From: a virus | Lineage: Duplodnaviria > Caudoviricetes | Length of the DNA stretch: 27,700 nucleotides | Virus record (IMG/VR): IMGVR_UViG_3300022936_000132 | Span: 1 to 27,700 of that record | Reading direction: 5' to 3' (one strand) | Shown here: piece after piece, positions 864 through 27,589 of the stretch | How the letters are laid out: each line of letters begins with the position of its first letter | Position numbering within the stretch: the stretch's first letter is position 1 | Notes under the pieces: model-generated | The model's input: only the letters and a program-made list of their open reading frames with translations | Told to the model about the DNA's origin: nothing | The model's database searches: none | Position numbers and translations under genes: made by a program

Positions 864-951
864 GGAAGTATGGCCGAGTGGTTTAAGGCAGCAGTCTTGA
901 AAACTGCCGACTGTAACAGGTCCTAGAGTTCGAATCTCTATGCTTCCGCCA
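864..951 (+). tRNA. serT: tRNA-Ser (anticodon TGA); probable prophage integration site
   Basis: Acceptor stem GGAAGTA/TGCTTCC, discriminator G, encoded CCA; anticodon arm GCAGT-CTTGAAA-ACTGC; long variable arm; T-loop GTTCGAATC; 88 nt. Confidence 0.97.
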
Positions 952-9374: not shown

Positions 9375-10256
9375 ATGGCTAGGGTAAGGTCTTCTGCAAT
9401 TCATATTGGTGCACTCAATCTCGTGCTGCAGCCCCATACACCAATTACCTATATTGAAATGCTGCAGAAAATGGCGCGTTATAAGTTTGATGCACAAGTG
9501 CATGGTGATAATGCACTTCTATTAGGTACATGTCGGTATTTGGACCCTTCCAACCCGCTTGAGGGTGTAAGAGGTGATATTTACAAGTTTTTGAAGTTGG
9601 ACTCTTCTGATGCTTGGTTTAATACCGAAAATATGGATGAGGCTACTGAGGATGAAGTGGCGGAAATAAATATTCCGGAGAACCTTAAGCCTCATTTCAA
9701 AAGATTTCAGTACATTTTTTTCCCTGAAGGGCATCGATTTTATTTCATTAGTTCTAAGCCAAAGCAAAGTCTCTCACCTCGCTTGGTGAAGATTTTTTTC
9801 GAGAGTGTATTCAGGCGGGAAGAGTTTGCTGAGTTTGGATCTCTAAACGTAACGATTCAGCCAGACCCAAATCGACTGGACGAATTGTTCGCCATGAGGA
9901 ACATTTCTGTCATTAAGATGGAGATTGCAAGGCCGAATCCTGACGATTTGGAAGAAGCAGAGGCGGAGATACTTGAGAGGCTGAATCGTATAAATGCAAA
10001 GACTGAAAAAATTGAATTTTTGGCAGCCAATACTGAGGGTTTACGTCCAGATGGAGAGCTCAGGGTTTTAGCTGAGGTCGCAAATGATAATGGCTTTGTA
10101 TACGCCGAGGGCAAGAGTGCTGACGGATTGAAGACTTACATGTCTACAAAAGACATGCCTTTGCATATTACTGCAAAATACAATCCCAATATTAGCTCAG
10201 AGTTCGACGCTCTGTATGATAAGGTTGTCGAAATACATCGAGAGATTACAGGGTAG
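9375..10256 (+). CDS. DUF4747-like protein (cargo, candidate defence component)
   Basis: N-terminal IGALNLVLQPH and IPENLKPHFKRFQYIFFPEGHR...I.RPNPDD...NGFVYAEG patterns recalled from DUF4747 proteins; AT-rich relative to the phage backbone. Confidence 0.7.
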   Translation: MARVRSSAIHIGALNLVLQPHTPITYIEMLQKMARYKFDAQVHGDNALLLGTCRYLDPSNPLEGVRGDIYKFLKLDSSDAWFNTENMDEATEDEVAEINIPENLKPHFKRFQYIFFPEGHRFYFISSKPKQSLSPRLVKIFFESVFRREEFAEFGSLNVTIQPDPNRLDELFAMRNISVIKMEIARPNPDDLEEAEAEILERLNRINAKTEKIEFLAANTEGLRPDGELRVLAEVANDNGFVYAEGKSADGLKTYMSTKDMPLHITAKYNPNISSEFDALYDKVVEIHREITG

Positions 10257-10258
10257 TT

Positions 10259-10828
10259 ATGACTGGCTTCGGCAAAATTAGGGCTGATTTTAAAGGCGTT
10301 CGTTCTATATGGAGTAAGTACTGGTCCGCCTATGGGGGGACTGCTGCTCTGTTTAGCTCGACATACTTCTACATTGCGCTCATTTTGACCGTTGTCAATT
10401 TTGGCGCTTGGTATCACTCGGGTTGGTGGGATCTGGTACTTGCTACCGTCCCAACTATCCTAGGTTTTACGCTTGCGGGTCTCGCCGTTTTCTTGGGCAT
10501 GGATTCAGGTTTTTGTAGATTCCTGGCTGGTGAGGTCGAAGGAAAAACTTCGCCTTTCATGCAGTTGGTGTCAGCGTTTGTGCATTTTATATTAACTCAG
10601 TGTTTTGCGGTGATTATTGCACTAACTGTGAAGTCTGCTTTTTTTCAAGTGGGAGGGCTTCCCGAATATTATTATGATGTTGTTTATGTTCTTAATAGAG
10701 TTGTTTGGTTTGTAGGATACTTTGTCTATATGTATTCGATGGTTCAGACATTTAGTGCGGTATTTGCAATATTTCGTGCGACCCGGTGGTACGAACTCTA
10801 TATTAACAAGGGCGAAAATAGGAGTTGA
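10259..10828 (+). CDS. Multi-pass (about 4 TM) membrane protein, operon partner of the DUF4747-like gene
   Basis: Starts 2 nt after the upstream stop; four hydrophobic segments; P..LGFTLAG.A motif. Confidence 0.8.
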   Translation: MTGFGKIRADFKGVRSIWSKYWSAYGGTAALFSSTYFYIALILTVVNFGAWYHSGWWDLVLATVPTILGFTLAGLAVFLGMDSGFCRFLAGEVEGKTSPFMQLVSAFVHFILTQCFAVIIALTVKSAFFQVGGLPEYYYDVVYVLNRVVWFVGYFVYMYSMVQTFSAVFAIFRATRWYELYINKGENRS

Positions 10829-10919
10829 TAACGTATGGTTTTATCCCGCGAAGAATTCTTATGAAGGTCATGGATTGATAGTGAGATTGTCACCTAAGAT
10901 TTTAGGTTTGCTGACGAAA

Positions 10920-11804
10920 TTATTCTGGAAGGCCATAAAGCTCCTTGATGTGCTTGACTATGTTGTTGCCCGAGTATATGCGTGCAGGGATATTGTTAAT
11001 TAGAGAATAATTGTGTGTAAGCCAGGCAAATCGGTCGTTGCTATTATGTGCTTTGCGAAATGCAGCGTAATAGCCAATTAGGCAGATTATTTCTCCTCCC
11101 AGGTGAGCTTTGATGATGCTAGCGTACATGTGATCATCTTGAAGAATTGATAGTTTTTCACTAATGGCCTCCGAAGTTAGCGCAAGTTTAGCTTTGGTGT
11201 TGTTCGCAAGAAAATCTAGTAGTTGTTGTATCATTCGGAGATACTCTATGCATGTTTCGAAGTCTCCTGTACGGAATGATGAAAGGTCAGTAGGCCCCCT
11301 CCAGCAATTGGCTAAATGATAGAGAGTTTCGCGTAGCACATCGTCTTTTTTTAATTGTGTAAGCCGGTCGTTGTGCTGGTTTAGTAATGCAAAAAAAGTT
11401 CCCTCAAACTGCTGTTTTAGCTGGGTTTTTGACTGCTCATCCATTACTTTTTGGGTTGCCTCTTGTGCCATAGCACTTCGTTTTAATTCACCGCGAGTGG
11501 CTTCAAGTTCCAGTCTCGTCAGTTCAAGCTCCTTCCGGGCGAGCTCAAGTCCATTATTTTGAATTATTATAGTTAATAAAAGGGCTATTAGCCCCAAAAA
11601 GCTGAATATTGGGTTCAGCGTACCTCCAATAAAATCTCCGAAGGTACCCCAGTCGCCGTTTACCGTGCTGAAGCTAGAACCTGGCGAAAATCTGACGAAG
11701 TAAGCACCATAAACAATAATGGCTGCAAGGCAAGCTAGCGCGAAGATGACTATCAACCATTTGGTCAAACTCTCGGTTCCTAGCTTCTGGCGCTGCTTTG
11801 TCAT
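10920..11804 (-). CDS. Putative phage abortive-infection (putAbiC-like) membrane protein
   Basis: Two N-terminal TM segments with WGTFGDFIGGTLNPIFSFL, a coiled coil (LELARKELELTRLELEATRGEL), then QQFEGTFFALL; ATG 11804 preferred over 11936. Confidence 0.72.
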   Translation of the reverse strand: MTKQRQKLGTESLTKWLIVIFALACLAAIIVYGAYFVRFSPGSSFSTVNGDWGTFGDFIGGTLNPIFSFLGLIALLLTIIIQNNGLELARKELELTRLELEATRGELKRSAMAQEATQKVMDEQSKTQLKQQFEGTFFALLNQHNDRLTQLKKDDVLRETLYHLANCWRGPTDLSSFRTGDFETCIEYLRMIQQLLDFLANNTKAKLALTSEAISEKLSILQDDHMYASIIKAHLGGEIICLIGYYAAFRKAHNSNDRFAWLTHNYSLINNIPARIYSGNNIVKHIKELYGLPE

Positions 11805-11914
11805 GAATATTTCATCCGCATTCGAAGTGGCGATGTTACATCGGCTCTGATGTTGAGGCCATTTGATTTCGATCTTTTGTTGGATTATTAAGATTTCCCT
11901 GCCAGGCCCATACG

Positions 11915-12088
11915 ATCTGCAAGGCACATGAAGCATATGTGTATACCAATGGCTTGCAGCTGAAACCCAGGCCTCAGCTTGATAGACGAGCTGGGCCGGC
12001 TGACGTCGCCCACGATGAAGTCATGGCAAAAATGGAGCCACAGATTGAAGATTTGCAGGCTGGTGACAAGGGCATGAAGCGTGACTGA
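11915..12088 (+). pseudogene. Possible frameshifted remnant of an antitoxin-like gene
   Basis: Fragments in two frames: KAHEAY / YQWLAAETQAS / ADVAHDEVMAKME, resembling the C-terminal Y..WL.A.VQ...HDEVMA.M motif of ParD/PaaA2-like antitoxins. Confidence 0.35.
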
Positions 12089-12419
12089 ATCCCTATATCG
12101 TATCTGCTGCGAGCTGAGTGCGCACGCAAAACCATCAAGTAACCGTCTGCACATAGGCCGAGAAACCCTTTCAAGACTCCCCGCTTCGGGAAAGAAATAA
12201 TATCAACTCAAATGCTTAGAGTGTTTCCTGAAACAGGGTGACCAAGTCGGCCGGGGTTGGCCCAATCCCGTGAGCTGGTTCTACATCCTAACTACATTGT
12301 CTTCACCGCTTGCTCACTAATCAGAAGCAAGTTCAGATTCTGAGAGTGAAGCACGTCGTCCTTAGGCTATTACCATAGGAGTGGCGGAACCTACAAAATG
12401 GCAAGACTGCTCGGTTCCG

Positions 12420-13319
12420 CTATTTCCCATCCTTACTCGGCTGATCGCTGCTGCTCGTCTTCTTTAGCAGCGGCAATGGGCAAGAGACGGGTTTAAAAGT
12501 AAAAACCTCTTTTTCATCTGCGACAGCGAGGATGGCTTTGTCGTCATCCAAAAGAGCAACGCTTGAGTTTTCAGGTTGTCCGGCAATTCCACACCTCTCA
12601 GGTGAAACATGAAAAGATGAATAAACCAATAATACCTTTACGCGCTTGTTAGCCAGATCATGTGACAGCTCGCTGAAAGCGTTTAGGAAAATGACGAGGG
12701 TGTATGAAATCCCCACGAGTGCGATCATTGATAGCGTCGATGCTCGCGTGGTCGTAGCTTTTTTAAATACGGTATGAAAGCCTATGGATAGAAATACGAA
12801 CATTGTTACGAACATTCCCATCACTGACCAGCACCAAATAACCGTAACCAGACCTAAGATTTTCTGTGCGGTTGGAAATTTATCTGCATTCATACCCGTA
12901 AGATTGGCAATAGAGCTGTCTACCACAGGTGCAGTGAGGATGGCGAAAGCAGCAGTCGTCAATGCTGCAAACACATTAAGAATGCCGGAAAACCTCGAGT
13001 ACTTGGTCATGATTTTGTAGTACATGGCTATCAATGCGACAGTGCATAGGCATGTCCACGCCAGTATCAACCAGCGATACGACCTAGGCATGTCGAAGCC
13101 TAATTCTATAAAGCATCCAATGTACACCAGCAACAAAATATTGAATGCATTTATCGCGGCAAGATATTCCGAGTAGGACCAGTCAACAGGTCTGTAATTA
13201 AAGGTCGGTGTCGGGCGTAAGCTAAACAGTGGTTTGCGTTTGAAAGCATGCCGCAGCACACAATATATTATCAAGGTCACAAAAAAAACGACGAGTACAG
13301 GTATTATTGGAGTCGGCAC
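12420..13319 (-). CDS. Polytopic membrane protein of unknown function (cargo)
   Basis: 299 aa, about 6 hydrophobic segments followed by a soluble tail with two Cys; AT-rich; GTG start. Confidence 0.75.
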   Translation of the reverse strand: MPTPIIPVLVVFFVTLIIYCVLRHAFKRKPLFSLRPTPTFNYRPVDWSYSEYLAAINAFNILLLVYIGCFIELGFDMPRSYRWLILAWTCLCTVALIAMYYKIMTKYSRFSGILNVFAALTTAAFAILTAPVVDSSIANLTGMNADKFPTAQKILGLVTVIWCWSVMGMFVTMFVFLSIGFHTVFKKATTTRASTLSMIALVGISYTLVIFLNAFSELSHDLANKRVKVLLVYSSFHVSPERCGIAGQPENSSVALLDDDKAILAVADEKEVFTFKPVSCPLPLLKKTSSSDQPSKDGK

Positions 13320-20105: not shown

Positions 20106-20465
20106 ATGGACGTCGAGCAAGCAGGTGAAGTCGCTGCTGTAGGTGTAGCCGCCGCGACTGGCGCAGGATTAGGTGCCGCTTATGGCGTAGGCGTTATTGG
20201 GGTCGCAGCTGCCGAAGCTGCTGCGGCTACGGCCATCGCGGCGGGCGCATCGGCAGCGACGACTACGGCCGCCATTGCAGCAGCAGGTGGGGGGGCTATT
20301 GCCGCAGGCGGCACAGGAATGGCCGGAGGTGTCGCCACAATAGCTGGGGCGGCTGCAGGTACCGCGATACTCCCTATTGTGGCTTGCGCTGTCGGCGGTG
20401 CCGTCGTGCTAGGTGGCGTGGGCTGGGGAGCCTACAAGCTTGGTCAGAAGCTACTGAAAAAATAG
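20106..20465 (+). CDS. Gly/Ala-rich hydrophobic (glycine-zipper-like) small protein, cargo
   Basis: 119 aa, mostly G/A/V/I/T, with a basic C-terminus; AGGGA RBS; antisense to the tail genes. Confidence 0.72.
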   Translation: MDVEQAGEVAAVGVAAATGAGLGAAYGVGVIGVAAAEAAAATAIAAGASAATTTAAIAAAGGGAIAAGGTGMAGGVATIAGAAAGTAILPIVACAVGGAVVLGGVGWGAYKLGQKLLKK

Positions 20466-20584: not shown

Positions 20585-21454
20585 ATGTCGGAGCATCTCG
20601 GTTTTTATTTGTGTAATCTCATCATTCCAGGAGAGCCTGAGAAGCTTGAAATTAATACTCGGCTGGGGACGTGGGAATTAGAACGAGAGCATCGCTACCT
20701 CGAGGTTAAGCAAGCGCTCGCAGACGGTAGGGTTGGAGAGACATACAGCATTATGACCGACGTTGTTGTTGGTCCGTCCGGCCGTGCAGCTTCTCTTGAT
20801 GCAGTGTTTGATGAATTGCTACCTATCTGTTTAGCCTCGAGCTACCTGACTGGTGCTAGTGTAGCGGTGAGTAGGTCGCATCCGTTTTCTGAATGCAGCT
20901 TTTTGCAAGTCGGTCCGCATTTTCCAAGGCTACGGGCCGTATGTGAAATTGACAGTGTAGTAAACACTCAGCAACAGTTCGCTGAACGTGTTGAAGCCTT
21001 CGTGCGTAATCACTCAGTGTCGGGATTTGCAGAGAAGGATCGGCTTCTAGTTCATCACTGGCTCAATGCGGTCGCATGTTGGTCGATGGAAGACCTCTGC
21101 CTAAGCACAGGGACTCTACTTGAGATAATCGCAGCAACTGCAGAGCGAGAGGGGAAAGTTGCTGGGCAATCCCTCATGAACTTCAACCAAAGAATTCAGT
21201 TCGCTGCGACTCGTTTCACGTTGCCGCAGCTAAGCGCAGATTTTAGGAATATGCGGAATGATCTCGTTCACGAAGGGACGCTTTCAATAAAAAAATTCCC
21301 TAACAAATCTCTAGCAGAGTGTGCAGCGGCTGTGGCCGAGGCATTGCACTGGATTGATCAGTACATGCATGCCGCACTTGGTTTGGGGTCGTTAATTAGC
21401 AACAGGTTTCCTGCCAATACCTACAGGAGTCTGAACGCATTCTCTCTAGACTAA
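20585..21454 (+). CDS. HEPN-motif protein (candidate anti-phage RNase)
   Basis: C-terminal RNDLVH (R-x4-H) preceded by a helix with LLEIIA; AAGGA RBS. Confidence 0.7.
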   Translation: MSEHLGFYLCNLIIPGEPEKLEINTRLGTWELEREHRYLEVKQALADGRVGETYSIMTDVVVGPSGRAASLDAVFDELLPICLASSYLTGASVAVSRSHPFSECSFLQVGPHFPRLRAVCEIDSVVNTQQQFAERVEAFVRNHSVSGFAEKDRLLVHHWLNAVACWSMEDLCLSTGTLLEIIAATAEREGKVAGQSLMNFNQRIQFAATRFTLPQLSADFRNMRNDLVHEGTLSIKKFPNKSLAECAAAVAEALHWIDQYMHAALGLGSLISNRFPANTYRSLNAFSLD

Positions 21455-22318
21455 TGCTTCACCCTTAGCGCGCGTATTGATTAATCGACATGCAATCCAC
21501 TCCGCAATTTGCGGCACAACGGCGTTTCCGCTAGCGAAAGCTTCTGCAAGGTTGGCCTCATCCAGTCCGAGGCAAAGCCCATCATTTTCAGACGCTCGCT
21601 GCCGCTCAACCATCTGATCCCATCGGTTCGGCTCAGCGACGAAAGTGGTGCAGCCCAGAGTGATTCGCCCTGGGGCGTTGTCTGCCAGCAGAGTATTGGC
21701 AGCCCATGCATCCGCGGGGCGTGGCCACTGGATCGAGCCAGACGCTGGAGATATTGCGTCCACTGGCGTGGCGTCAGCCAGCAGCTCCATGGGGGGCATT
21801 TGTCGATAACCGGCGACCAGGAATATGCGACGACGTTGCTGGGGGACTCCGAAATATTGAGCATTAAGCACTCGCCAAAATCCCACATACCCGCAGTCCG
21901 CAAGGGCCCGGATGACTGTCTCAAAGTCTTCGCTATCGTTGACAGCGAGCAGGTTAACGACGTTCTCAAGGACCACCCAGCGAGGTTGTATTTCTTTGAG
22001 GATGCGTATGACTTCCCAGAAAAGGCCGCTGCGTTCGCCGCGTAATCCCCGCTTGCCTTGATTGTTGGGGTTGGCTCCGGCGATGCTGATGTCCTGGCAG
22101 GGAAATCCGCCGGTGAGCACGTCGACACGGGAAAGATTGTGCGCGCCGCAATGGCGCACATCTTCGAACTGTTGGGCGTGCGGAAATCGATCGGCAAGGA
22201 CAGCCCGGTTAACGGGGTTGAGTTCAACTTGCCAGGCAGTGCGATAGCCTGCGTTTTCGAATCCGACATCGAAACCTCCTATGCCTGCGAACAGGCTTCC
22301 AATGGTTGGCTGTGGCAT
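21446..22318 (-). CDS. DNA (cytosine-5) methyltransferase, alpha-type polypeptide lacking motif IX
   Basis: Motifs I LFAGIGG, IV GFPCQDIS, VI LENV, VIII PQQRRR, X GNAVVPQIAEWIA. Confidence 0.9.
   Translation of the reverse strand: MPQPTIGSLFAGIGGFDVGFENAGYRTAWQVELNPVNRAVLADRFPHAQQFEDVRHCGAHNLSRVDVLTGGFPCQDISIAGANPNNQGKRGLRGERSGLFWEVIRILKEIQPRWVVLENVVNLLAVNDSEDFETVIRALADCGYVGFWRVLNAQYFGVPQQRRRIFLVAGYRQMPPMELLADATPVDAISPASGSIQWPRPADAWAANTLLADNAPGRITLGCTTFVAEPNRWDQMVERQRASENDGLCLGLDEANLAEAFASGNAVVPQIAEWIACRLINTRAKGEALV
21481..22269 (-). CDS. Nested +1-frame ORF: candidate MTase beta polypeptide carrying motif IX
   Basis: 262 codons with no stop, same strand as alpha; AGGAGG 5 nt before ATG 22269; IRWLSGSERLKMMGFASDW matches motif IX (R.L...E..RL.GFP..W). 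Confidence 0.75.
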   Translation of the reverse strand: MSDSKTQAIALPGKLNSTPLTGLSLPIDFRTPNSSKMCAIAARTIFPVSTCSPADFPARTSASPEPTPTIKASGDYAANAAAFSGKSYASSKKYNLAGWSLRTSLTCSLSTIAKTLRQSSGPLRTAGMWDFGECLMLNISESPSNVVAYSWSPVIDKCPPWSCWLTPRQWTQYLQRLARSSGHAPRMHGLPILCWQTTPQGESLWAAPLSSLSRTDGIRWLSGSERLKMMGFASDWMRPTLQKLSLAETPLCRKLRSGLHVD

Positions 22319-22485
22319 TGCGTGGTGGTTGTTCCTGGGTGCAGATGCTCACGGCGTTCTGGCAGGAGGCTCGCGGCCTTCAAGTGGTTCAGTGTCCGGC
22401 AGCGCGGGCACTTGATTTGTATTTCAATGACGCCGCTCGCGGCGGCAAGTTTGCGGCTGCAGTGGCCGCAGCGGATGTCTTGCAT
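22279..22485 (-). CDS. com: Mu-like Com zinc-finger translational regulator
   Basis: MQDIRCGHCSRKLA...IQIKCPRCRTLN C4 motif; directly upstream of and overlapping a DNA-modification gene, as in Mu com-mom. Confidence 0.85.
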   Translation of the reverse strand: MQDIRCGHCSRKLAAASGVIEIQIKCPRCRTLNHLKAASLLPERREHLHPGTTTTQCHSQPLEACSQA

Positions 22486-22540: not shown

Positions 22541-22990
22541 TCATGACGTCTGGGAGGCAAGCCAACCAGGCGGGGAGGGTCTCGACTTGGCTTTAGGGAA
22601 GGTTTTAAGTTGTGGCCACTCCCGCAGAGCTTGTCGGTGAGCCTGCAATTCCGTGTATTGCGTCGGGCTTAGCGTGGTTTTAGCGCGATTCTCGACCTCG
22701 TCCCTGTGCCTGAGCACCATGGCATCCGTGCGCGCAAGCTGGGTATCGCGCCAAGCTCGTTCTAAGGCCTCTAGCTGCTCGACAGTCATGGACGGTGGGT
22801 CAATCAGCTGCGGATAGCCATCTGCTCCTGCGGCCATTTTCTTGGGGCTGACCGCCAACTCTTCGAGCAATGCTTGCCATGCGGATGCGGTGACTTCCAC
22901 AACATCACTTGGCATCTGAGAGCCGTGCATTTCTGTGGTGTAAGCGCCAAGTGTGGACGGGCTGAAAAAAACATTTGCACTCATGGTCAT
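22541..22990 (-). CDS. Tail fibre assembly chaperone (GpG/Tfa-like)
   Basis: GYPQLIDPP...ERAWRD...RQALREWPQ...RPSPP.WL; ATGA overlap with the fibre stop. Confidence 0.85.
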   Translation of the reverse strand: MTMSANVFFSPSTLGAYTTEMHGSQMPSDVVEVTASAWQALLEELAVSPKKMAAGADGYPQLIDPPSMTVEQLEALERAWRDTQLARTDAMVLRHRDEVENRAKTTLSPTQYTELQAHRQALREWPQLKTFPKAKSRPSPPGWLASQTS

Positions 22991-24531
22991 ACCCCTAACG
23001 CACGCCAATAAACACCCCATCCGGCTTGCGCACTCCCATCAGCATTTTGTACGCGGACGGTGCAGCCAGTGGTCTTTACTGATCCATTGATGACGCAGCT
23101 CTTTAGCCCGGCGGTGCCGATGTGTAAAAGGCTGATGTTTCGCATTGCGACGGGGAATGCCATTGGGAAAGTGATGTAGACATAGCCGTTGGCATCACAT
23201 GCCCCCGTTCCCCATTGCTCAATGGCGCCGCCCGGCTGCCTATAGCCGCTGTTCATGTTGCTGATTGAGAAAGCCGGCGAATATTTAAGCGCCGCATCAC
23301 CCCGTTCCAGCTCCCAGCCGCTCGCATCATCAGCTCGGCGGAAAATTGCCATTGAGGTAGGCATGATCGCGATAGGACCTGTTACGCCTGATAGTGTGCG
23401 AAGAGCCTGGCCGCTCCAGGTGGTCGCCGTTAGGTCTTCCGTGGCTCGGGACAAAACTGTAATCAGGCTGCCCGACGCGACTGATCTTGCGTCTGGCAAT
23501 GTGATTGCAGCGCTTGTCCCGGTTATCGAAACGAGTCGCCCAACATCCGCCGCCGTCAGCGTTACGTCGCCGGCATAGGTCACGGCTTCGGAATAACTAC
23601 CCTGGTTGCGGATTACAAACTCGGTCGTCGCCAGCGCGCCAGACCTATCGAATTGCGGGGGAGTATTCGCCGTCGGATTAGTCAGTGTTGGGGCGTTCAT
23701 TGGGGCGTAGCCCAGGGTGACGTCCTGAAACTTTAGCGCAGTGATCCCCAGCACAATGGGCCCATCAGTCACCAACTGCCATCGAGTGTCCGCCAGCTTC
23801 GCACCTTGCTCGACTGATACCAGGAGCGCCGAGGTAACTTCGCTATGGTGATCAGCATCAGCGCTGCGCGCCCATACCCCAGGGCTGGCAATGTAGATGC
23901 CATTGTCTTTGGCCACCTTCTGGTTCTTTACCAGGACTCGATCACCCGTGACCAACTGCTGGGTGTCGATGATGTGAAGCCCCGCCAAGCTGATATTGGC
24001 GGTGGTAGCCAGTCGTACCGACTGTTTGTTATCGAGCTTGAAAAGCTGCTCAATTATTCGGGAATCAACATATTCGCGTGTCGCCAGAACCACGCTCGGA
24101 TCGATCTTGAGCACCACGTTAGCCGTGCTGCTGATGATGAATGTCATGCGCACGACCTGCGTCCTGCCGGAACCCTGGCCGAGCAAGGGTTTGTAGCTCG
24201 GCGCGCAGTTCGATACCGCTACCAGATCCCCGTCCGCATCGTATAACCCGACCTCTCTGACCCACCAGCCGCCCACGTCAGCTGGAATGACTTGCTCGGC
24301 GATGAGCAGGCCAGGGTTCTTTGCATCGATGGTGAGCTGGTTTAACGGGGCGCGTCTGCGTTCGTTGATCAATGCAGTCTGTAGCCGATCGGGAATTGGG
24401 TCGCTGCCATTTGCATCACCGACGCCCATTTGAGTGATCAGCCAAGGGATACCGAGTGCATCGGCGTTGGCCTGCTTGGCCTCTCCCACGGCTGTGAGGA
24501 TCGCTAAAAATTGAGAGTTCTGGTCAATCAT
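22987..24531 (-). CDS. H: Tail fibre protein GpH
   Basis: N-terminal DUF3751-like region (AILTAVGEAK...GGWWVREVGL...IDPSVVLATREYVD), C-terminal QWG...ITFPMAFP domain. Confidence 0.92.
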   Translation of the reverse strand: MIDQNSQFLAILTAVGEAKQANADALGIPWLITQMGVGDANGSDPIPDRLQTALINERRRAPLNQLTIDAKNPGLLIAEQVIPADVGGWWVREVGLYDADGDLVAVSNCAPSYKPLLGQGSGRTQVVRMTFIISSTANVVLKIDPSVVLATREYVDSRIIEQLFKLDNKQSVRLATTANISLAGLHIIDTQQLVTGDRVLVKNQKVAKDNGIYIASPGVWARSADADHHSEVTSALLVSVEQGAKLADTRWQLVTDGPIVLGITALKFQDVTLGYAPMNAPTLTNPTANTPPQFDRSGALATTEFVIRNQGSYSEAVTYAGDVTLTAADVGRLVSITGTSAAITLPDARSVASGSLITVLSRATEDLTATTWSGQALRTLSGVTGPIAIMPTSMAIFRRADDASGWELERGDAALKYSPAFSISNMNSGYRQPGGAIEQWGTGACDANGYVYITFPMAFPVAMRNISLLHIGTAGLKSCVINGSVKTTGCTVRVQNADGSAQAGWGVYWRALGV

Positions 24532-25136
24532 GGGTATACGTCCAGGGTATCAATACAGTGCTCGGCACCGGTCATGCCGATGCGTCCTACGACTTCAATG
24601 TCACGTTGGGCGGGCGGGTAAATGTCGGTCTGGTCACCTTCGAAGAGGCAAGCCCCGACATGGATCTGGCCGCTGGTTTCCAGACTGATAGCCAGGCCTG
24701 TCAGGTGGCGACTGAGGGGTTTGGCGTCGTCAATCAGCCAAGTCAGCTCCTGATACATCTCTTCGGTAATGCCGGTATCCAGCACGCCAACGGTGAGCTG
24801 GAAAGTGCCAGGCGTGGTCGTTGGTGTTTCCTCCCACCATTCCCGGACCTCGATCAGGAATCCCAGTGGTTCGACTACTCGGCGCAACGCGCCAATGGTG
24901 CCTTTGCGCGAGTGGACGAAATGCGCTGAGCGAATGGCCGACCGCTTGGCAGATTCAGGCCAGCGGCTATCCCAGCGGTCTACGGAAAACGCCCAGGCCA
25001 GGTATGGCAGCAAGGGAGCAGGGCAGGTATCCGGGTTGCACAACTGGCGCAACGGAATGGGCGTGCGCTGGATCTGCGCCAATGCTTGGGCGGCTAGGCG
25101 TTCCAGCGGAGTGGCATTGCCGGGGAGCAGGCTCAT
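24528..25136 (-). CDS. I: Phage tail/baseplate protein GpI
   Basis: SLLPGNATPLE...CPAPLLPYLAWAFSVDRWD...KGT; ATGA overlap with J. Confidence 0.93.
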   Translation of the reverse strand: MSLLPGNATPLERLAAQALAQIQRTPIPLRQLCNPDTCPAPLLPYLAWAFSVDRWDSRWPESAKRSAIRSAHFVHSRKGTIGALRRVVEPLGFLIEVREWWEETPTTTPGTFQLTVGVLDTGITEEMYQELTWLIDDAKPLSRHLTGLAISLETSGQIHVGACLFEGDQTDIYPPAQRDIEVVGRIGMTGAEHCIDTLDVYP

Positions 25137-26047
25137 GAGAATGCTCCCAGCGCGACATCGATACCTGTGCAAAAAGGTGCCTGTTGCAGGCTGGCTGTGA
25201 TGTCTTTCCAGTCGTGGAGCACGACTTTACGCACGCCCTCGACGTGGAGCGCCGCGTGTAGTGCCGATTCAGAAACCTCCATGCCCAGCCGTCTACGTTT
25301 ATGCACGAAGGCGAGCAAACGTTTCTCGGCTGCCGCAAGAATCGGTTCAGACTCCGGACCGATGGTGATCAGATGCAGGGTCGCTTTGACCTGATAGCGC
25401 AAGACCTCCGCACCACGAACCGTCAGTCGATCGGCAACAGGCCGACGGTCTTCGTCGCTCAAGTAGCGCGCGACAACTGATAGCAGATCGTCCGGGCTGG
25501 TCCCGTCGCCCATCACTGATTGCACGGTGACCACTACGACTGCTGGTGTTGGGCTATCGGCTGTGGCATCTGCTACACGACCATCGGCGGCGCGGGCGTG
25601 AAAGATATAGCTGTTACGCGGCCCTGCGGTGCTCAAGCCTTCCCACGCCATTTGCGCCCGCTCACGTAGGCTGTCATCGCTTTCCATGATGCGCGTCTGC
25701 GGCGGCGAGGCCTTCGGGTTGCTTGGCTGAATCACCAGGCGCTTGACGTTGTAGTTGGCTGCCAGCTGCTCCAAGTCGGTGCCTTCAGCGCTGGACAGCA
25801 GGTTTGCCAGGGCGGCTTCGTTCACCCTTTGCCGCCAGATCATTTCCCTGTAGGCGTTCTCTTGGAGCAGCTTGTTCAGCGGCTCGGATTCCAGTGCCAG
25901 ACGTGCAGCTATCTCCGCTTGTTCGTCCTGTGGCCAGAGGCTGATGGCGTAGGCTTTGCGCTCGCTCAGGATCTGCTCATAGTCCAGCTGTTCGACCACT
26001 TGCGGCGGTGGTAGCTGACTGAGGTCGATGGCGGCAAAGGTATTCAA
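25133..26047 (-). CDS. J: Baseplate assembly protein GpJ
   Basis: IDLSQLPPPQVVE...ESDDSLRER...LSTAGP...RPVADR. Confidence 0.94.
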   Translation of the reverse strand: MNTFAAIDLSQLPPPQVVEQLDYEQILSERKAYAISLWPQDEQAEIAARLALESEPLNKLLQENAYREMIWRQRVNEAALANLLSSAEGTDLEQLAANYNVKRLVIQPSNPKASPPQTRIMESDDSLRERAQMAWEGLSTAGPRNSYIFHARAADGRVADATADSPTPAVVVVTVQSVMGDGTSPDDLLSVVARYLSDEDRRPVADRLTVRGAEVLRYQVKATLHLITIGPESEPILAAAEKRLLAFVHKRRRLGMEVSESALHAALHVEGVRKVVLHDWKDITASLQQAPFCTGIDVALGAFS

Positions 26048-26388
26048 ACGCTGCCTCCCAGTTGCAGTGGGATGCTCATGCTCAGCGGTTCATGGCTATC
26101 GATGATGCTGCCGTGCAGATCCAGCTCGGATTTGCCTTGCTGATCGGCACCCAGCAACTCCATATGGCTCAGGCGTATGCGTGGCTCCCAACGCAGCAGG
26201 GCCATGGCCGTGGCGGCATACACCCGCAGCCGGGTGAAGTCATTGAACGGATCATCGATCAGCTCGGGCACCAGGCTGCCGTATTCACGGCGCATGACAC
26301 GGGTCCCGATGCGAGTGGTGAGGATGTCGGTAATCGACTGGCTGATACTTTCGCGCCTGCTCAGGCTGCCCCCGGTGTGCCGATTCAT
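26044..26388 (-). CDS. W: Baseplate wedge protein GpW (gp25 family)
   Basis: QSITDILTTRIGTRVMRREYGS...RWEPRI. Confidence 0.93.
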   Translation of the reverse strand: MNRHTGGSLSRRESISQSITDILTTRIGTRVMRREYGSLVPELIDDPFNDFTRLRVYAATAMALLRWEPRIRLSHMELLGADQQGKSELDLHGSIIDSHEPLSMSIPLQLGGSV

Positions 26389-26987
26389 TGCGGCGGGCTC
26401 GTCGGAGCACCGAGGTTGCCCACGTGCACGTGCTTAACCAGGCTGATGCCGGCGGCGACCACATCAGCGGACACGGTGACTTTCCCGGTGATGGTTTGAT
26501 TGCCGGTCTGGCTGTAACTCCCCGCCTGGGTAAAGTTGCCTGTCTGGGTGTAATCGCCTTCATGAGTGACCGGCCCGACAAGGTGAATACCGCCGCTGCT
26601 GATTAGCTCTGTGGTACCGCCCTCAGGCAGTTGCGCCCGCAACTCGTGGGCCACGCTGTCGTACTCGATCACAGCGCCGTCCTGATACGTGCGGCGGTGC
26701 AAACCCAGGCGATCGCCGTTGGCCGGGATTGCATCGCTATAGATGCCGGTGATTACCACGGCGTTTGCCAACTGGCCGGATGGGCTGAGCAGCAAAACTT
26801 GTTCGTTTATCGTCGGAGGATCCCAATCGACATCGGCACCTGCTCGTAAGGCTAGCCACGGCAACCAGCCAGTGGTCAACCCACCGGTTTTGACTCGGAC
26901 ACGCGGGGGCTTCATCTGGGTTTCGGCAATGGTGCCGAAGCGGATGAGGTTTTCGATCAGGCGGGAGAGGGTCGCGGTGTCGTTCAT
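26385..26987 (-). CDS. V: Baseplate spike protein GpV
   Basis: RLIENLIRFGTI...WLPWL..RAG; 6-residue beta repeats; C-terminal HVH metal-binding motif. Confidence 0.94.
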   Translation of the reverse strand: MNDTATLSRLIENLIRFGTIAETQMKPPRVRVKTGGLTTGWLPWLALRAGADVDWDPPTINEQVLLLSPSGQLANAVVITGIYSDAIPANGDRLGLHRRTYQDGAVIEYDSVAHELRAQLPEGGTTELISSGGIHLVGPVTHEGDYTQTGNFTQAGSYSQTGNQTITGKVTVSADVVAAGISLVKHVHVGNLGAPTSPPQ

Positions 26988-27034: not shown

Positions 27035-27053
27035 TGTAGTCCGCGGATCTACA
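27035..27053 (-). promoter_or_regulatory. Ogr-type late promoter box upstream of V
   Basis: TGTAG-N9-CTACA dyad, 48 bp upstream of the V start. Confidence 0.7.
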
Positions 27054-27381
27054 AAGGTTTCGAGCGCTTGTCCCAGTAGGCCTTTATCGTTTCCAGGTTT
27101 GTGTGTCGGCCCGCATCAATGTCCGCCAGGCCCTCGGCAATCGCGGCCTGATGCCATGATGCGTTGCCGAGCAAAGCCTGAACCTCTTCATCGCTGGCGA
27201 AATCACCGGCATCCGCTTCCTCTACAGCACGCTGAAGCTCAGCGACTTGCTCTTGCTCGCGTTCCAGGTAGATTCTCAATGACTCCAGCGCGAGGGTTGA
27301 CTCGTCACGTCCGGTTCTTTGTGCCATTAGTGCCAAGTGATTGGCGAGATCGGCAGGGAGGTTAAGGGTGATTTCGTTCAT
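27049..27381 (-). CDS. CopG/RHH antitoxin-like protein with a duplicated C-terminal module
   Basis: ITLNLPADL...LALMAQRTGR...LRIYL RHH fold pattern, then EEADAGDFASDEEV and EGLADIDAGR; ATG 27381 preferred over 27534. Confidence 0.72.
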   Translation of the reverse strand: MNEITLNLPADLANHLALMAQRTGRDESTLALESLRIYLEREQEQVAELQRAVEEADAGDFASDEEVQALLGNASWHQAAIAEGLADIDAGRHTNLETIKAYWDKRSKPL

Positions 27382-27589
27382 AGCGATGCACCGTGTTCGT
27401 AAGCGGTTGATTCGTGCTGAGCAGGAATGGAAAGCGTCTATGGTCCATGATGAGCCGTCATCCCTGTGAAAGGCTATAATGGGCCCGTTCCCGACGACGG
27501 AATATCTAATTTTACCCTGTCGCGATTTGCTCAAAAATGATTATTGGAATAAGCTTTTAGGCATGAATACACATCCTCTGGAGGCTTCC

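Follow-up and report, generated by a model that had tools for sequence, protein, structure and literature searches.

The 27,700-nucleotide stretch of phage DNA analysed here (the window) carries a gene for a Mu-type Com zinc finger followed by two overlapping reading frames, alpha and beta, which as judged from their sequences probably encode a two-subunit cytosine methyltransferase. The three frames are conserved, the start of beta is conserved with them, and two Com-type hairpins lying within com are conserved at the nucleotide level. Because the arms of these hairpins are predicted to hide the alpha start and the Shine-Dalgarno sequence of beta, Com would gate both subunits through hairpins in its own coding sequence; on the folding models we give this two-site model about an even chance. 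The elements of the locus are as follows.

22541-26987, minus strand: P2-type tail genes V-W-J-I-H-G, assigned with Pfam, directly upstream and 55 nt from com.
22279-22485, minus strand: com, a Mu-type CxxC-x-CxxC zinc finger of 68 aa that shares its frame with beta.
22367-22379, minus strand: Com-type site 1, a 4-bp stem with a C-N-N-G-A loop, in com codons K-A-x-S-L.
22364-22372, minus strand: 3' arm of site 1, the predicted anti-Shine-Dalgarno arm, complementary to the Shine-Dalgarno sequence of beta.
22345-22357, minus strand: Com-type site 2, which corresponds to the 19-mer of Mu and has a 3' arm predicted to pair with the alpha start.
21446-22318, minus strand: alpha, 290 aa, with motifs I-VIII of the C5-cytosine methyltransferases and a motif-X-like segment at its C-terminal end.
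22283-22296, minus strand: TTCG-loop hairpin of 5 bp in the motif I codons, a predicted side arm of the helix between the anti-Shine-Dalgarno arm and the Shine-Dalgarno sequence of beta.
22267-22281, minus strand: overlap of the com stop with the Shine-Dalgarno sequence of beta, followed by the beta ATG.
21481-22269, minus strand: beta, 262 aa, in the +1 frame of alpha.

The region is the tail end of a P2-type prophage adjoining a tRNA-Ser gene, and the closest relatives of the locus are in Pseudomonas genomes. Between G and com, the minus strand contained neither a terminator-like nor a sigma-70 promoter-like site. A separate promoter for the cassette was considered and rejected, a sigma-70-type site being absent near com. 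The tail genes likewise had no TGT-N12-ACA box, which we take to be the Ogr-type motif, and among 45 of the 88 upstream regions no common sequence was found. The genes preceding the cassette vary widely among relatives; 26 of the 37 upstream ORFs tested (91 distinct in all) belong to the PHROG tail category and one of the 37 to endolysin. The cassette is presumably read from the late tail transcript, and active enzyme would then appear late. A comparison by shared words with 24 sequencing runs gave no run containing half of the words, the fraction in the RNA runs being 0.04-0.06. By analogy with Mu, such late enzyme might protect progeny DNA from restriction by methylating it while leaving the lysogen unaffected. 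Two plus-strand genes separate the methyltransferase from the sheath gene. One is a Gly/Ala-rich ORF of 119 aa at 20106-20465 and the other an ORF of 289 aa at 20585-21454 that overlaps the end of alpha by 9 nt, and neither had a match in Pfam, PHROG, NCBIfam, or PADLOC. Elsewhere in the window, an accessory block at 9375-13319 contains DUF4747, a 189-aa unknown, a weak match to a putative AbiC (E 1.8e-5, short of the cut-off in PADLOC) and a 299-aa unknown. A RelB-like antitoxin match below the cut-off lies upstream of gene V at 27049-27534 (minus strand), and the tRNA-Ser gene at 864-951 (plus strand), beside the integrase, is the likely attachment site.

The product of com matched the Mu-like Com family of Pfam (PF10122, E 2e-18) as well as PHROG 6417 and 13819, and its four Cys residues were invariant in 98 of 98 loci. 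The arrangement at its end was confirmed as the original prediction had described it: the TAG at 22281-22279 overlaps the AGGAGG at 22280-22275, and the beta ATG at 22269 lies in the com frame, three codons past the TAG. The combination AGGAGG-N4-8-ATG occurs once in the window on both strands taken together. A survey of homologs found the junction widely conserved: of the 5' regions compared, 140 were distinct, and com stopped at the same TAG in 98 of them. The ATA and GGA codons of alpha motif I at this place had been called uncommon, and so they are in the late genes of the window (6 of 172 Ile codons and 14 of 284 Gly codons, respectively). In the 98 TAG loci, codon 4 is ATA in 96 and GTA in two, and hence the TAG outlives an Ile-to-Val change. 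Furthermore, the TAG tracks com, as it was retained in 98 of 98 loci where com ends there and lost in six of the nine clade loci in which com is absent or ends elsewhere. Several public phage records leave com unannotated or annotate another frame in its place (L193, L194, L195, L197, L201 and L202, at about 1100-1300).

Alpha begins inside com at ATG 22318, preceded by an AGGA 14 nt upstream (22336-22333), which agrees with the weak and distant ribosome-binding site noted earlier. The Shine-Dalgarno sequence of alpha is weak clade-wide, with a match of at most 3 nt in 94 of 98 loci. The distance of 14 nt is due to six extra nucleotides (window 22332-22319) between site 2 and the alpha start, which were seen in four of 98 loci, the window included, and are specific to the lineage of the window. 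The protein matched PF00145 (E 1.4e-51, profile positions 3-161 of 324), and its FPC, ENV and G-N-A positions were conserved in 33 relatives. The structural model of alpha aligned with M.HhaI over 218 residues (Z 23.2, rmsd 2.6), and when folded alone it was unconfident at residues 184-259. By the motif labels that we assume, I-VIII and X are present and IX is absent. Six proteins annotated as cytosine methyltransferases (P0105, P0109, P0112, P0113, P0060 and P0056) are alpha/beta chimeras that differ in the point of frame switching and are devoid of the motif-X-like end; we read them as sporadic frameshift alleles.

The selection on beta was evident from 108 sequences (107 loci and the window). 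Motif I could be recognised in 104 of them, and the distinct sequences in which alpha is complete numbered 80. Of these 80, 78 were free of stops in the +1 frame and not one was in the +2 frame. Leu and Val codons ending in TG before A, which would form a stop in beta, occurred in 3 of 725 cells, compared with 1135 of 2751 elsewhere, and by site in 0 of 12, compared with 27 of 42; counting by site is fairer because the sequences share a common origin (most have 80-87% identity to alpha). The same avoidance was found in codons 5-94 (0/224 versus 268/772), and so the N-terminal half of beta is kept open too. The beta ATG is present in 92 of the 98 TAG loci, and a TTG one codon on was found in five of the six loci devoid of this ATG and in none of the 92 having it. 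The open frame, the avoidance of stops and the ATG/TTG compensation together bear out the claim that beta is an ORF under selection with its start at 22269, and com and alpha are likewise under selection.

A protein search returned 119 beta homologues, down to about 40% identity. Beta has no family in Pfam or NCBIfam, gave one weak PHROG methyltransferase match (E 1e-4), and three of 41 beta members matched PF00145 weakly. Searches of beta against plasmids, and of one distant beta as a single query against viral contigs, returned no match, and nothing significant was found among solved structures by sequence, profile or Foldseek. Beta is predicted to have a disordered N-terminal half and a folded C-terminal part with a conserved end, which we take to be motif-IX-like; its model was confident at residues 151-244 and disordered before them. 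When 48,161 chains were searched for similar folds, seven reached Z 2 and five of these belong to the C5-methyltransferase family, matching beta at 105-245, which is a hint only because the Z values are low (2.0-2.8).

The known Com site of Mu is a hairpin whose loop reads CC(N)2-3GAG, and the same source (PMC6483171) reports a selected motif of two parts and suggests that Com may use more than one site. Site 2 resembles both the Mu site and this loop motif. A loose site pattern had 10 matches in the window on both strands; a pattern match alone is thus not decisive, and the assignment of the sites rests on conservation. A third Com-like pattern at 22445 was not conserved and was rejected. The third bases of com codons L-K-A-x-S-L, which cover site 1, were invariant in 98 of 98 loci, though x is P, Q, A or K. 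Two com codons over site 2 were also invariant, and none of the 31 upstream com codons was. The stem of site 2 changes on both sides across relatives and has one C-A mismatch in the window. The third-position invariance, the two-sided stem changes and the match to the Mu site argue that both sites have probably been selected as RNA. The distance from site 2 to the start of alpha is 32 nt in the window, 26 nt in 94 of 98 loci and 22 nt in Mu. Twelve named phage records carry other cargos (Mom, adenine or N4/N6 methyltransferases and unknown genes); in these a site is found 21-28 nt ahead of the start of the cargo gene, and eight of the 12 have site 1 as well. The alpha start is thus placed like those of genes under Com control. 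A thirteenth record, DVM-2008, was left out of the folds, its partner starting after com ends. Site 1 is older than the split enzyme, and so the reason for its conservation may lie elsewhere than in beta.

In the predicted minimum-energy fold of the free RNA, the alpha start is paired with the 3' arm of site 2 and the AGGAGG of beta with that of site 1, the TTCG hairpin forming a side arm. This anti-Shine-Dalgarno pairing was predicted in 91 of 95 relatives. Four C-G pairs of the helix are present in 99 of 99 loci, and its central pair (n = 99) shows one compensatory change (L286), two wobbles and two mismatches. Eleven of the 99 have a mismatch at another pair, and two of three changes in the 5' arm leave a mismatch. 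The helix is nearly invariant with little covariation, and both of its arms are protein-coding. The TTCG hairpin had been put forward as a control element just before the ribosome-binding site of beta. It is present at that place, with a median pairing probability of 0.95, and the role in control was not upheld, the Com sites lying 50-100 nt upstream. It was rejected as a Com site because it is without the CC-N-GAG loop and is common by chance; the minus strand has 31 perfect stems of 5 bp with a 4-nt loop. This hairpin coincides with the S-L-F-A-G codons and occurs also in distant loci devoid of an internal beta start. Its loop is closed by G-C, and the stable cUUCGg loop closes with C-G.

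When hairpins were held in folding tests of 95 of the 98 loci (three with no pattern match were omitted, and easing was taken as more than 2 kcal/mol), holding site 1 eased opening of the beta start in 80 loci and of the alpha start in two, and holding site 2 eased opening of the alpha start in 70 and of the beta start in six. With three more nucleotides covered, the counts were 78 for beta and one for alpha with site 1, and 81 for alpha and three for beta with site 2. Among six held hairpins in the window, alpha was opened by site 2 only, and beta was opened best by site 1 and by one sham that overlaps the anti-Shine-Dalgarno arm. Holding site 1 also eased the cargo start in six of the eight single-cargo phages that have this site. 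The Mu control was missed when the hairpin alone was held (9.5 to 9.8 kcal/mol) and recovered only when 3' nucleotides were covered (down to 3.6 kcal/mol with three). The site 3' arms paired with their own start regions at -9.6 kcal/mol and with those of others at -7.5 kcal/mol, a score that can be inflated by shared base composition or overlapping segments. In permutations, own-start pairing of this strength was reached in 0 of 20000 (33 of 35 loci with a site) and in 2 of 20000 after pruning to 20, and the cognate start came out as the strongest partner in just five of 33 loci. The equilibrium probability of site 2 in free RNA was about zero, and holding both sites cost a median of 11.5 kcal/mol and 16 in the window; the Mu hairpin, by contrast, is present in the free fold. 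Because of this low probability and high cost, capture by Com would have to be co-transcriptional or follow a ribosome.

The history of the beta start was examined in a distant set of 30 distinct loci, made up of metagenome contigs (beta 41-56% identical) and two Ralstonia phages. In 27 of the 30, beta starts upstream of motif I and there is no TAG; 20 of these 27 have ATG-N-ATG, in which beta starts four bases after alpha. A com gene was recognised by pattern in 16 of 36 undeduplicated distant rows, and in most distant relatives its frame is a different one. In several distant ATG-N-ATG loci (L109:1218-1224, L110, L322, L333, L341, L354, L356 and L359), one Shine-Dalgarno sequence serves both starts and the 3' arm of the Com site is complementary to the start region. 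In an alpha tree of 49 rows, midpoint-rooted with no outgroup and with direction set by parsimony, the start with TAG and Shine-Dalgarno overlapping marks the Pseudomonas clade (support 100/99) and occurs also in L328, inside a clade of tandem starts (100/100), and in L347 on a long branch. Com lies in another frame in L328 and was not found in L347. From these positions we infer two or three origins for the internal start of beta. Judging from the tree, the older layout would have had both subunits starting at one ATG-N-ATG, and this clade would have moved the beta start into motif I, within reach of the anti-Shine-Dalgarno arm. In single-cargo com cassettes the same arm would pair with the cargo's own Shine-Dalgarno sequence.

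A Pseudomonas lineage without com and both sites (L053, L064, L066, L095, L096, L101 and L301) constitutes a natural control. Its two frames are intact, the enzyme abuts a baseplate gene, and GGAGG and ATG are retained. The beta start was kept in all six intact com-less loci of the Pseudomonas clade and in three with com ending elsewhere. The original prediction had coupled beta to com termination. Since the beta start persists where com is missing, and also in L328 and L347, com termination is not needed for it; a contribution of such coupling may remain.

In the two-site model, the site 2 arm would cover the alpha start and the site 1 arm the AGGAGG of beta as long as Com is absent, the TTCG hairpin standing as a side arm, and capture of each hairpin by Com would free the matching start. 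Ribosomes finishing com on the Shine-Dalgarno sequence of beta may help to open beta. Ribosomes on com and alpha cross every element, however, and could open beta with no binding of Com, and coupling to com termination is the main rival reading for beta. In this reading, which is the original prediction with its control element relocated, Com would gate alpha only, with both hairpins as one binding platform, and beta would be made by termination and reinitiation whenever com is translated. We rank this below the two-site model and regard it as possible rather than probable. In its favour, the com stop overlaps the Shine-Dalgarno sequence of beta in 98 loci, the TAG is kept through the Ile-to-Val change and mostly lost where com is absent or ends elsewhere, the two sites also precede single cargo genes, and beta alone would be harmless. 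Against these stand the persistence of the beta start without com termination, including the same type of start in L328 and L347, and the need for the TAG as the com stop in any case. Moreover, as the alpha Shine-Dalgarno sequence is weak clade-wide, that of beta is the only strong partner for the site 1 arm.

Three further readings were weighed. Late transcription alone might set the timing, with Com sites that are inherited and do little and both subunits translated with the message; the com-less Pseudomonas lineage keeping both frames directly behind a baseplate gene, the 20 of 36 distant rows devoid of com by pattern and the mismatch in site 2 of the window would fit such a reading. It is nevertheless improbable, as the third-position invariance over both sites in 98 loci and the near-constant distance from site to start argue for present selection. 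A functional Com-beta fusion by amber read-through, as proposed earlier from the shared frame and the single TAG between com and beta, is very unlikely. No in-frame fusion was found in 114 com loci, and a Com domain was absent among the 119 beta homologues (144-459 aa) and one longer match. The position of com in other frames in most distant relatives and the maintenance of the beta start by compensation also go against it. Equally doubtful is the reading that beta is a shadow of the alpha codons making no protein, the enzyme being degenerate or a single chain dependent on frameshifting. The missing Pfam and NCBIfam families, the single weak PHROG match, the existence of the chimeras and the weak fold matches would suit it, but the avoidance of stop-forming codons by cells and by sites does not, and the chimeras, with their varied switch points and lost motif-X-like end, look like sporadic frameshift alleles.

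Of these readings we give the two-site model the highest probability. A fuller version of it, to which we give somewhat less than an even chance, is an RNA AND-gate in which one protein and two hairpins, each licensing one subunit, would act with an old anti-Shine-Dalgarno arm re-aimed at a new start inside the motif I codons. The cassette opens no new class of mechanism. If true, the model would show how a Com switch handles two starts, allow the proposed use of more than one site by Com to be tested directly, and explain the stop-free disordered stretch of 150 residues in beta as keeping the beta start inside the control region. The cassette also marks a phage methyltransferase family in which the second subunit and the com gene are often unannotated.

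The closest comparison is with com-mom of Mu, where the mom gene is late, harmful to the host and protective (PMC3299994). In both systems a Com zinc finger overlaps the start of a DNA-modification gene, a hairpin with the CC(N)2-3GAG loop lies 20-30 nt before the cargo start, and the cargo start is predicted to be hidden in RNA structure. The cassette thus shares the four-Cys zinc finger and the loop hairpin before the cargo start, the two sequence criteria of a Mu-type switch. It differs in that the cargo is a two-frame C5-methyltransferase and not Mom, in having two clear Com-type hairpins that are predicted alternatives to blocking helices instead of neighbours of one, and in its place in a P2-type prophage with no separate promoter found. 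In the RefSeq record of Mu, the annotated start of mom is an ATG that lies 30 nt upstream of the in-frame GTG. Cassettes of com with a methyltransferase are described for B3 ORF47/48, FluMu HI1523, Hia5 and Pnm1, with control by Com proposed (PMC3299994), and the KS5 account places the com cassette gp21/gp20 in the slot between the tail-fibre assembly and sheath genes (PMC3091744). As in these, com here is followed by an orphan DNA methyltransferase, the slot is that of KS5, and site 1 is common to B3, UMP151, others and this locus. Their cargo is a single-chain adenine or N4/N6 enzyme with one start, whereas here there are two starts 49 nt apart.

The two-frame layout is that of M.EcoHK31I (YGGCCR), in which beta lies wholly in another frame of alpha, alpha holding motifs I-VIII plus X and beta holding motif IX (PMC2836561, PMC3404938). 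In both, the second ORF is nested in another frame, and here it is under selection. The beta of our locus spans almost all of alpha, starting at or near the alpha start, and it stands behind com with no restriction endonuclease recognised nearby. M.EcoHK31I was not among the sequence matches found, and the likeness described here is one of layout. M.AquI is also a C5-methyltransferase of two polypeptides, split differently, with motifs IX and X on the small subunit. Neither Com with a two-frame enzyme nor a model of one site per subunit was found in searches of the open-access literature. Both parts are known, from Mu com/mom and from M.EcoHK31I, and it is their combination that appears to be new.
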